Shown piece by piece: positions 391 to 17,181 of a stretch of DNA of 53,998 nt. The notes beneath the pieces were generated by a model. That model saw only the letters and a list, made by a program, of their open reading frames with translations. It had not been told where the DNA came from and did not search any database. The position numbers and the translations under genes were made by a program. Position 1 is the stretch's first letter, and the number at the start of each line of letters is the position of its first letter. The stretch is from Escherichia phage vB_EcoM_DE15: the sequence record NC_079184.1, one strand, 5' to 3'.

Positions 391-567
391 TTTTATTTTT
401 GGGACGGCGAGGAGGGGAAGCCCAACGTCCTATCGGACTTAAAATACGGTCCCTACCCCAACTTTTTCCTACAGCCTATCGGCTTTCAAACAACACCAAG
501 TTAGGCGCTTCGCTTATGGGTCAAGGTCAAAGTCTCCGTGCTGTTGTAACAATGGCACAGGTTTGTG

Positions 568-15014: not shown

Positions 15015-16104
15015 GTTGCCGATGGCAAACTTGAGAGACTAAGCTAAATCGATCTGGCATGCACTGGAAGATTTCCGGTGCTGCCTTGAACCCATTCTGA
15101 AAGGAAGAGTGGGCTTCAATGAGCATTCTTGTGATTAGAGTTGGGAGGTAGGCCGATGCCCAAGCTCATGGCCCAGACAAGAGTGTTCATTGAAGTTACT
15201 TCAATATGGATTGTCGCCAAGTTGTGGAAGGACGTGCACACAGATTTAACGAAGAAAAGTAACAGCCTGAGAACTGTGAAAATTTCCCGTTATGTCGTGG
15301 GGAAGTGCACCATAGCTTGGGTTCTTCACGTAGATATTACTCAGATATTTGCGGCTCGCTGAATGTGAGCATCCATATTGAAGTAGTTTTCTGAGTCTTA
15401 CGACGGGCCTAAACTGCCTGAAGTTATTGCGACTGTTTTATTCATTTAAAATAAATGCAAATGATTCTGAAATGCGAGTTGCGGCTTAATTAAATTTAAG
15501 TCCTCTCCGTGGTCTTCCAATCCCACGTAACCAAATTTGGCGCATTGTGGCTTCGAGATGTGATTAATAAATCGGAGCAATAATTAATTTGTATTCTGCG
15601 ATGCAATGCAGGCTTAAGTCCCTCAGTGCGCGTGGGGATGTGACAGAGTACAAACTTAATTATGCAGTTGGATATTTCTAGAGGACGGACGAGCACACTG
15701 GAATGTCTTCAATTGGTTTAGTGTGAGAAGCTATGCCAATATGAAACGTAACTCCTTGGGGAAGTGCTCCTCTGGATTTCCCTCCACACAGGAATCTCAA
15801 GCCTGTGGCAGCGACTTCGAAGCTGCACTGCGTAACCTAAATTCACCCTAAAGTGAGTTGCCCTGAGTATGGAAATAAACTGCTCATAACCGATGGTATC
15901 TACAAAGGTAGATTAAATCAGGTTGCCTGTTGGTACTTGGGTTCAACACCTGCTTGCACTCGCAAAGTAGTGCCTCGTACCTGAGATGAAGTGAGTCGGG
16001 ACCATCAATCCCACGTTATGTCAAAACACAGTAGGCGGCTCACGGATTCTACAAGCCTCGCAGTTCGGGAAAACCTGCGTTATCAAAACCCCCCTCTTTT
16101 ATTT

Positions 16105-16196
16105 GGACGAGTAGCTCAGAAGGTTTGCATTGTGCTCAGTCAGGTAGAGCAATCTGTTCGACAGATGTGTCGTTGGTTCGAATCCAACCTCGTCCA
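16105..16196 (+). tRNA. tRNA-like gene (anticodon loop GUUCGAC, anticodon UCG, Arg) carrying a 20-nt insertion in the D-loop; possibly pseudo-tRNA
   Basis: Acceptor GGACGAG/CTCGTCC, TA at 8-9, D-stem GCTC/GAGC, T-arm GTTGG-TTCGAAT-CCAAC, discriminator A; D-loop 29 nt with duplicated GCTCAG. Confidence 0.4.
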
Positions 16197-16228
16197 CCCA
16201 CTTTAATAATAGCAATACTGGAGTCCTT

Positions 16229-16614: not shown

Positions 16615-16738
16615 TTACTGCATGATTGCACAACCAATCTATTTGGATGTTGCAGAAGTGAAAGTTTTATCACGCGAAACCAAAACACAGATTTTAGTCC
16701 ACAATGAAACGTGGGCACAAAAGTGTTCGAAACGATGA
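16538..16738 (+). CDS. Lipoprotein in alternate frame overlapping the previous gene, o-spanin-like
   Basis: MFRKKCLAVLIAMSIVSC: signal peptide with lipobox-like IVSC. Confidence 0.3.
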   Translation: MFRKKCLAVLIAMSIVSCSQSGFVSDYCMIAQPIYLDVAEVKVLSRETKTQILVHNETWAQKCSKR

Positions 16739-17181
16739 AATTATCAAAGCAGTATATTTACGACAGAGTTTCTAAGCGTCAGGAACCTACTTGGCAAGTA
16801 GACACAGATGGGTATTTATCTGCTTCGATTACTTTGCCAGAAGGCACTTTCAACGTAAGAAAACACATCTTGGTGTTCTACAAAACAAACGGATACATTC
16901 CAGATTTTGTGGACCATAAAGACAACAACAAATTAAACAATGCTCCAGACAACTTGCGAGAAGCAAGCAAGTGCCAGAATCAACAGAACTCCAAACGACC
17001 AAAGAATAACTCTTCTGGCGTTAAGGGTGTGTCACTAACCAAACACGGTAAATGGCAAGTTCGTATTATGGCAAATGGTGTGAAGCATTACGGTGGATTG
17101 TTTGACTCTCTCGAAGATGCCAAACAACACATAGAATCATTACGATTGAAATTACATAGTGATTTTGCTCGTAGTGTGTAG
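16735..17181 (+). CDS. HNH homing endonuclease with AP2-like DNA-binding domain
   Basis: DHKDNNKLNNAPDNLREASKCQNQQN (HNH) and GVKGVSLTKHGKWQVRIMANGVKHYGGLF (AP2-like). Confidence 0.65.
   Translation: MKLSKQYIYDRVSKRQEPTWQVDTDGYLSASITLPEGTFNVRKHILVFYKTNGYIPDFVDHKDNNKLNNAPDNLREASKCQNQQNSKRPKNNSSGVKGVSLTKHGKWQVRIMANGVKHYGGLFDSLEDAKQHIESLRLKLHSDFARSV

Follow-up and report, generated by a model that had tools for sequence, protein, structure and literature searches.

The 53,998 nucleotides (nt) of sequence record NC_079184.1, from Escherichia phage vB_EcoM_DE15 and here called the window, form a Chaseviridae/Carltongylesvirus genome related to phage phiEcoM-GJ1 (GJ1). On the plus strand, positions 16105-16196 hold a tRNA-shaped gene that coincides exactly with a match to the Rfam tRNA family RF00005. 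The match scored 45.2 bits, against a gathering score of 29 (E = 1.8e-6 for the window), which is far beyond chance, and it was the sole Rfam hit within the 54-kb window. In the Rfam alignment, 23 nt are inserted in the D-loop and 2 nt are missing from the anticodon loop. A tRNA-like gene with an enlarged D-loop had been proposed at this position in a preliminary description of the sequence, and the score agrees with it. The gene has been known since its annotation in 2007; the observations added here are that the expansion is universal in the group and under selection, that the 'anticodon' is not under selection, and that the same syndrome is found in many uncultured phages.

All parts of the gene lie on the plus strand. 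The acceptor stem pairs GGACGAG (16105-16111) with CTCGTCC (16189-16195) at 7 of 7 positions. Its 5' strand is invariant in the 13 haplotypes of an alignment that comprised 25 cultured phages, two metagenome contigs and the window, and pair 5-68 changes from G-C to G-U in some relatives. The 3' strand is followed by the discriminator A16196, which is A or G in relatives, and then by CCC up to 16199, where some relatives (GJ1, Ecp_YSF and TH37) encode CCA. U8 and A9 (TA) together with the 5' strand of the D stem, GCTC, occupy 16112-16117; GCTC pairs with GAGC (16147-16150), which is followed by A26 in the segment 16147-16151, and both segments are invariant. The variable loop GTGTC (16167-16171) is likewise invariant, and its C48 can form a Levitt pair with G15. 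The T arm GTTGG TTCGAAT CCAAC (16172-16188) has a canonical GTTCGAAYC loop and a single variable site, T or C at loop position 60. The nucleotides of the tertiary interactions are present (U8, A14, G15-C48, GG and A21), and the 7-base-pair (bp) acceptor stem, the 4-bp D stem and the 5-bp T stem with a GTTCRANYC loop were present in each of the 13 haplotypes. The acceptor stem and T arm of the preliminary description were thereby confirmed. Folds of the family predicted by RNAfold and RNAalifold were non-cloverleaf and were set aside, as the cloverleaf pairs form in 100% of cells.

The two strands of the D stem enclose an expanded D-loop of 29 nt, AGAAGGTTTGCATTGTGCTCAGTCAGGTA (16118-16146), which is the site of the insert in the Rfam alignment. 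The loop measures 30 nt in the majority haplotype and 24 nt in isolate SA91KD, compared with a canonical length of about 7-11 nt. The earlier reading of a 20-nt insertion bounded by a duplicated GCTCAG holds: because this hexamer is repeated at 16114-16119 and 16134-16139, the 20 extra bases, given here as 16120-16139, have seven equivalent placements. When any 20-nt frame between the two copies was removed in silico, a canonical D arm resulted (TAGCTCAGTCAGGTAGAGC / UAGCUCAGUCAGGUAGAGC) and ARAGORN then called tRNA-Arg(TCG). Two blocks of the loop, AGAAGGT (16118-16124) and GTCAGGTA (16139-16146), are invariant in sequence among relatives. Between them lies a variable core with a possible mini-hairpin GCA-UUG-UGC (16127-16135), for which the other haplotype has GCU-CCAG-AGC, a difference that includes one compensatory change from an A-U to a U-A pair.

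The arm in the anticodon position (16152-16166) is 15 nt in total, as against the canonical 17 nt of a 5-bp stem and 7-nt loop. It consists of an invariant stem, ATCTG and CAGAT, and a variable loop TTCGA (16157-16161) with the triplet TCG at 16158-16160. The letters of the U33, UCG and A37 recognised in the preliminary description are present, but a 7-nt loop G32 U33 UCG A37 C38 is obtained only if a G-C pair is opened, which leaves a 4-bp stem. The shortfall that had been noted near position 26 or the variable loop is real but amounts to 2 nt instead of 1; A26 and GUGUC are both canonical, and the arm is left with a 5-bp stem and a 5-nt loop. The same stem, AUCUG/CAGAU (16152-16166), holds a paired CUG/CAG, and a pseudo-palindromic CNG motif of this kind is the reported cleavage site of P2-OLD in tRNA anticodon stems (PMC12445682).

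Comparison with the same locus in relatives, suggested in the preliminary description, revealed that the expansion accompanies the gene in all 27 related sequences where the gene occurs, from 25 cultured phages and two metagenome contigs. Third-codon positions of the adjacent open reading frame (ORF) were used as a neutral proxy, of which 25 of 46 are variable with a nucleotide diversity (pi) of 0.156. In the tRNA body of the Escherichia coli and Yersinia phages, only 2 of 72 sites vary (pi 0-0.02; Fisher 6e-11 against the neutral proxy). The blocks AGAAGGT(U) and AGTCAGGTA (AGUCAGGUA as RNA) of the expanded D-loop are substituted at none of 16 sites (pi 0; 6e-5 against neutral), and the middle of the insert varies at 6 of 14 sites (pi 0.153; 1.5e-4 against the body). 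Invariant blocks within the insert are as expected if the insert remains in the mature RNA. Judged by these substitution patterns, the gene is a selectively maintained RNA, with the expansion part of what selection keeps, and is not a disrupted gene. The 'disrupted tRNA-Arg' offered as one option in the preliminary description is contradicted by the strong purifying selection under which gene and insertion are conserved in every relative having the gene.

Two main forms of the insert were found. Haplotype V1, GGUUUGCAUU-GUGCUCAG, occurs in the window, GJ1, Bp10, SKA49 and ST32, and haplotype V2, GGUCUGCUCCAGAGCUUAG, in the majority of sequences; the other forms are a one-base variant in TH24 and a 6-nt deletion in SA91KD. 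All cloverleaf pairs form in 13 of 13 haplotypes, and the only changes in stems are the G5-C68 to G-U change and the compensatory A-U/U-A pair, which sits in the 3-bp mini-hairpin common to V1 and V2. The V2 insert can form a 7-bp hairpin, AAG.UCUG-CUC-CAGA.CUU, with one G-G mismatch (-5.8 kcal/mol). The SA91KD (L014) deletion, TAGTCA at the equivalent of about 16137-16142, reaches the second invariant block in this one isolate and leaves the Rfam score unaffected at 45.6 bits. It may be real or an assembly error, either being possible.

The loop of the anticodon-like arm behaves differently from the body around it. Four of its five sites are variable (pi 0.167; 5e-5 against the body), which is no different from neutral. 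On an otherwise identical body, UUCGA is found in most sequences, UUAGG in Bp7 and JL1, UAAGA in TH26, FXie and PYps16N, and UCGAA in TH29. The corresponding anticodons would be UCG for Arg, UAG and AAG for Leu, and CGA for Ser. The TH29 (L028) loop TCGAA is the exact reverse complement of TTCGA inside a perfect inverted repeat, which indicates an inversion, presumably by template switching, rather than three separate substitutions. In all four variants U33 is able to pair with R37 (U-A or U-G), which would extend the stem to 6 bp and leave a variable triloop. Positions 32 and 38 form an invariant Watson-Crick pair (G32-C38), of a kind that real anticodon loops avoid.

The arginine identity of the gene was considered along with its triplet. 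The identity set of E. coli arginyl-tRNA synthetase (ArgRS) comprises A20 as the main determinant, C35, G36 or U36, and A73 or G73. A20 is absent from the gene because both GG motifs precede U (GGU and GGUA). C35 and G36 are present in the UCG of the window, and C35 is lost in Bp7, JL1, TH26, FXie, PYps16N and TH29. The label 'Arg' derives from the triplet alone, while the triplet differs in close relatives and A20 is absent. One body is not plausibly charged correctly as Arg, Leu and Ser. The major capsid gene contains no CGA among its 16 Arg codons.

Existing annotations of the orthologues conflict. The GenBank entry of GJ1 gives 95 nt and 'tRNA-Arg, codon recognized CGA; may contain an intron', ST32 has 95 bp 'without an intron', SKA49 has 92 bp with no intron, Ecp_YSF and Pel53 carry a 71-nt tRNAscan call, and Mangalitsa is listed with '0 tRNAs'. 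A paper on Yersinia phages labels the orthologous tRNA as 'for arginine or leucine'. The 71-nt 'tRNA-Arg' of Ecp_YSF and Pel53 was rejected, since it forms only 4 of 7 acceptor pairs and begins within the insert, and is regarded as an artefact of disallowing an insert in the D-loop. ARAGORN called V1 as Leu, made no call for V2, called SA91KD as Ser(GCT), and gave Thr with an intron under -i. In the window it recognised a tRNA, but as tRNA-Leu(CAG) instead of Arg. Because the tRNA finders disagree (Arg, Leu, Ser, Thr with an intron, or nothing), the database annotations of the locus are not trustworthy. The SA91KD deletion removes both the ARAGORN 'anticodon' and the second GCUY, and hence the first GCUC with the last GAGC is the only possible D stem.

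The relatives score about 41-46 bits with RF00005 (41.5-45.6, including L023, L014 and L001). Rfam cmscan, in gathering as well as E-value mode, gave no tRNA at L002, L005, L022 and L028, all of the majority haplotype, though near-identical loci score; the Rfam speed filters seem to lose the match when the D-loop insert is 24 nt. Searches of viral contigs, metagenomes and bacterial genomes for further members of the family added only two. The candidates L033, L034 and L036 were discarded as chance matches, L036 lying in GC-rich sequence of an actinobacterial assembly without a tRNA call. A BLAST search with the 3' 63 nt of the gene against 5,426 E. coli genomes, aimed at a host-tRNA origin, gave no match, and the spanin protein, used to look for a syntenic tRNA in more distant Chaseviridae, is confined to the same 44 records. 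One relative is recorded as 'Staphylococcus phage Pel53' with the host S. hyicus (L003; PP952070.1). Its tRNA locus (181 nt) shares 86.8% identity with the window, and its spanin protein 83%. Such values are typical for the E. coli/Yersinia Carltongylesvirus group and make the stated Gram-positive host look doubtful.

The position of the insertion is shared with a wider class of elements in viral contigs. A scan with the pattern TAGCTCAG-N15-45-GGTAGAGC-N22-34-GGTTCRANYCC found at least 120 loci and at least 82 distinct pattern matches, some of them tandem tRNA fragments. The matches were filtered for pairing of the acceptor stem (6-7 of 7) and of the T stem (4-5 of 5), neither of which is demanded by the pattern, and tandem tRNA fragments were removed. 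At least 54 distinct elements were retained, and among the matches listed all have a hairpin of 17-44 nt between A14-G15 and G18G19-U-A, the position at which the window gene carries its insertion. Example loci (IMG/VR; L039-L155) are L039:7875-7964(-), L155:4156-4269(-), L087:202-298(-) and 474-564(-), and L152:6735-6844(+). Many of the expanded elements lie in phage tRNA arrays; they score 30-55 bits with RF00005 and are mostly missed by ARAGORN.

Some of these elements also share the short anticodon-like arm. As a control, 132 viral tRNAs with the same motifs and a normal D-loop were used, and the central region was defined as N26, the anticodon arm and the variable loop. This region had the canonical 23 nt in 123 of the 132 controls and in 11 of the 54 D-loop-expanded elements among the matches listed. 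It was 21 nt or shorter in 13 of 54 expanded elements, again among the matches listed, versus 1 of 132 controls (Fisher 3.6e-7); the families behind this value are not independent, yet they represent more than a dozen separate lineages. The central region of the window gene is 21 nt (N26, 5 bp, a 5-nt loop, 5 bp and a 5-nt variable loop), as in L066, L114, L115, L152 and L155, and L155 has a T arm identical to that of the window as well as a 5-bp stem and a 5-nt loop. In several expanded elements UNCG or GNRA tetraloops, pentaloops or 8-nt loops replace the anticodon loop. For 18 members of one family, RNAalifold placed a 5-bp hairpin inside the D stem, with compensatory changes in four of its five pairs.

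A BLAST search of the two largest viral-contig families against cultured phages gave no match for one and no counterpart for either; for the other, matches to tRNA-Phe genes of Bacillus phages were limited to the last two-thirds of the query, 3' of the D-loop hairpin. No description of a D-loop-expanded class of phage tRNAs was found in a literature search whose coverage was incomplete and which does not by itself prove novelty. Two further arrangements were seen in the same contigs. In L041, L044, L068, L077, L084, L097, L117, L142 and L144, which are unrelated, a complete tRNA gene is directly preceded by a 5' tRNA fragment that comprises the acceptor strand, the D arm and the beginning of the anticodon stem. 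In the GGTTGWGG family (L048, L051, L054 and relatives), an 8/4 arrangement with GGTTGWGG/TCCCAACC and a 4-bp T stem fits better than 7/5. This recalls the 8/4 tRNAs reported in phages (PMC5389517).

The genomic slot of the gene is variable in content. In Yersinia phage PYps3T (L030; window about 16093-16205) the tRNA is precisely absent and both flanks are kept, and the same holds for PYps4T and PYps16T (PMC8762354). In Escherichia phage BSBP01 (L037:733-806) and Shigella phage 2KOFFS (L038:1-65), at the equivalent of about 16093-16215, the slot holds an imperfect hairpin followed by AUUUUU. This hairpin is stable (-23.7 kcal/mol, z = -5.05) and terminator-like, and its flanks are conserved. 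Judged from these natural variants, the gene is dispensable and its slot exchangeable. The locus belongs to a mosaic accessory region, with 62-74% BLAST coverage of the surrounding 2.5 kb. An HNH_3 endonuclease ORF (16711-17181, plus strand; E = 3e-13) follows 0.5 kb downstream of the tRNA, and in Pel53 an HNH gene lies upstream instead.

Upstream of the gene a conserved block of 33 nt, GCAGTTCGGGAAAACCTGCGTTATCAAAACCCC (16060-16092, plus strand), varies at 3 of 33 sites and is kept even where the tRNA is absent or replaced. The block showed no significant fold (z = +1.05) and no match to the phage promoter consensus. The consensus, AACATTAGTTGGATGTGAA, was taken from nine annotated GJ1 promoters, and no convincing match to it was found upstream of the tRNA; a search for a sigma-70 promoter or a terminator adjacent to the tRNA found none. 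The nearest annotated phage promoter is located about 1.3 kb upstream, so that release of the RNA from a polycistronic transcript would be required, presumably through RNase P and trimming of the 3' end.

Taken together, the findings are best explained, with somewhat less than even confidence, by a mature pseudo-tRNA that would keep its D-loop element and act through the acceptor/T-arm/elbow half without reading a specific codon. This reading is suggested by the frozen body, the conserved expansion, the short arm with its neutrally drifting loop, the missing ArgRS determinant and membership of a class in which structural loops often stand in place of anticodon loops. The product would be a tRNA-derived RNA of about 92 nt plus 3' CC, orthologous to the 'tRNA-Arg' of phiEcoM-GJ1. 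The gene carries all the features that maturation and folding as a tRNA require. RNase P and 3' trimming would cut it from a polycistronic phage transcript, and the CCA enzyme would complete its 3' end. The extra D-loop element would be retained and project from the elbow at nucleotides 16-17, and the arm opposite the acceptor end would be 5 bp closing 5 nt or 6 bp closing 3 nt, unlike a working anticodon arm. Host or phage factors that bind tRNA may then recognise the acceptor/T-arm/elbow half. The 'tRNA mimic' of the preliminary description is thus the option favoured by the evidence, if an unproven one.

For the role of such an RNA, two modes were considered. The preferred one, possible though doubtful, is action in trans, in which the RNA would serve host enzymes or defence toxins directed at tRNA as a decoy or a surrogate substrate. 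A cis-acting role as RNase P punctuation or 3'-end element is rather improbable; the main hint to it is the terminator-like hairpin in the same slot of two phages.

Several observations weigh against the pseudo-tRNA. The variation of the loop reflects just three to four mutational events, among them the simple inversion of TH29. None of the four loop variants has lost U33 or the purine at 37, each of the four triplets is a sense anticodon, and the UAG variant carries G37, the m1G37 context. CGA is used by the phage at 6.9 per 1000 codons and makes up 15% of its Arg codons. In the V1 haplotype of the window, the 7-bp hairpin of V2 is weakened, and the insert folds at only -0.8 kcal/mol. Finally, GAA triplets persist in some D-loop-hairpin families, within loops of 7 or 8 nt and at times on a stem of only 4 bp. 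One family conserves GAA in a 7-nt loop, members with a 4-bp stem included, so that an expansion and a short stem may be compatible with decoding.

Much of this evidence would suit a genuine decoding tRNA(UCG) with an extra D-loop arm, an alternative that carries real weight although we consider it the less probable one. The insert would be retained, and the G-C pair would open to a 4-bp stem and 7-nt loop. With nominal Arg charging, the tRNA would read CGA and CGG, which E. coli reads poorly via I34, and relatives would have shifted to UAG, AAG and CGA. The odd arm and elbow might aid escape from host tRNA nucleases, an idea that has been raised for phage tRNAs (PMC10264068), and phage tRNAs whose weakened anticodon stems protect them from a host nuclease without loss of decoding are documented (PMC12445682). 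The Rfam score above the tRNA threshold, the constancy of U33 and R37 with G37 accompanying UAG, the frequency of CGA and the unrelated D-loop-hairpin family that keeps a GAA anticodon on 4- or 5-bp stems all speak for decoding. ArgRS tolerates A73 or G73, and the CGA use of the phage is roughly twice the E. coli average. Against it, the anticodon evolves at the neutral rate on a frozen body, a single body charged as Arg, Leu and Ser is implausible and lacks A20, and the 32-38 positions form an invariant Watson-Crick pair. In the reading with a 7-nt loop the arm lacks one base pair and no nucleotide is left for position 26. The capsid gene manages without any CGA, and phages without the gene are viable (PMC8762354).

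It is very unlikely that the 20 nt are an intervening sequence removed after transcription to leave a canonical 72-nt tRNA, a version of the 'tRNA needing unusual processing' of the preliminary description. Precise removal does give a textbook D arm, a direct repeat flanks the insert, and the GenBank entry of GJ1 states that the gene 'may contain an intron'. With 20-21 nt, however, the insert falls far below the size of a group I or group II intron, and it matched none of the ribozyme or intron families in Rfam; no bulge-helix-bulge motif is common to the two insert haplotypes. E. coli is not known to have a splicing endonuclease. No RNA ligase, tRNA or RNA-repair enzyme was found among the ten window ORFs scanned against Pfam, which gave only a DNA-type ligase, the HNH_3 endonuclease and a sub-threshold ArdA-type antirestriction match, and the annotation of phiEcoM-GJ1 lists none. 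In the majority haplotype the direct repeat is imperfect (GCTCAG/GCTTAG), removal would leave the 2-nt-short anticodon arm unrepaired, and invariant blocks within the insert would be unexpected if splice junctions alone mattered.

Still harder to sustain is a decaying pseudogene, that is, a tRNA-Arg which lost its function through a 20-nt duplication or insertion and is carried passively. In its favour, the gene is dispensable, being absent in PYps3T, PYps4T and PYps16T and replaced in BSBP01 and 2KOFFS, and its anticodon is unconstrained. Yet, among phages of E. coli and Yersinia, variation is limited to 2 of 72 body sites as opposed to 25 of 46 neutral ones, all stems are paired in 100% of cells, and the insert is common to all lineages and therefore old. 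A type II tRNA-Leu(CAG) as called by ARAGORN at 16104-16200 (score 111.6), with a GCTCA/AGAGC anticodon stem, CAG at 16141-16143 and ATCTG...CAGAT as a long variable arm, would explain why the hairpin loop varies freely and why GTCAGGT is invariant but is barely credible and was rejected, because its D stem is essentially unpaired (one Watson-Crick and one G-U pair), five unpaired nucleotides follow its 'variable arm', the calls are unstable across haplotypes (none in the majority haplotype, Ser(GCT) in SA91KD, whose deletion removes the supposed anticodon), and GCTCAGTCAGGTAGAGC is a textbook D arm from which onward other phage tRNAs align.

Phage tRNAs are currently explained as compensation for codon usage or as replacements of host tRNAs destroyed by nucleases, and both explanations assume decoding. 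The frozen body, the conserved 20-nt expansion and the drifting 'anticodon' point to a third use of the tRNA shape, and the scan of viral contigs suggests that many similar genes have been missed or mislabelled. On a bolder and rather unlikely view, the Carltongylesvirus 'tRNA-Arg' would be the first cultured and genetically tractable member of a widespread, undescribed class of phage pseudo-tRNAs acting outside decoding. Its members would combine a structured D-loop expansion at the elbow with a truncated or degenerate anticodon loop. If this were true, they might, for instance, neutralise host immunity directed at tRNAs by serving as decoys or surrogate substrates, or they might accept an amino acid irrespective of the anticodon. 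The question is directly testable because the phages grow on E. coli K-12 and natural variants exist without the gene, with the terminator and with other loops.

Among known systems, type II tRNAs (Leu, Ser and Tyr) likewise add a fifth helical element to the cloverleaf, but the extra element of the window gene is in the D-loop and not in the variable region, and a type II reading of it fails. Archaeal tRNA introns of the bulge-helix-bulge type, including those in the D-loop, resemble it as short insertions into an otherwise canonical tRNA gene; here a conserved bulge-helix-bulge is missing, the host is a bacterium without the splicing endonuclease, and parts of the insert are conserved. Pseudo-tRNAs and tRNA mimics such as tRNA-Other of Bacillus cereus, the YrlA Y RNAs and the tRNA-like domain of transfer-messenger RNA (tmRNA) are tRNA-derived, keep the acceptor, T arm and elbow, and are not ordinary decoders. 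These RNAs are handled by tRNA enzymes (PMC4201824; for tRNA-Other, as cited in PMC5389517). The window gene is distinguished from them by an expansion inside the D-loop. It matched neither YrlA nor tmRNA: a permissive Rfam scan returned tRNA and two chance-level hits, and ARAGORN found no tmRNA. Unlike in YrlA, its 5' and 3' ends form a normal acceptor stem followed by CC, and no Ro60 gene is annotated in phiEcoM-GJ1.

The elongator tRNAs of phages are a further case. The 'tRNA-Arg' of phiEcoM-GJ1, ST32, SKA49, Ecp_YSF and Pel53 is the same gene, and the acceptor stem, D stem and T arm are those of a canonical elongator; the D-loop of 29-30 nt versus 7-11 nt, the arm shorter by 2 nt and the triplet unconserved among orthologues set it apart. 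The D-loop-hairpin elements of viral contigs show no sequence relatedness to it beyond the generic tRNA search motifs, and their inserts are clean 5-7-bp hairpins, whereas the window haplotype folds weakly and the majority haplotype of its family forms 7 bp with one G-G mismatch. In common with the window gene, they have extra bases between A14-R15 and G18G19-U-A, a canonical acceptor stem and T arm, an anticodon arm often of non-canonical length, and a place in phage genomes, often within tRNA arrays.

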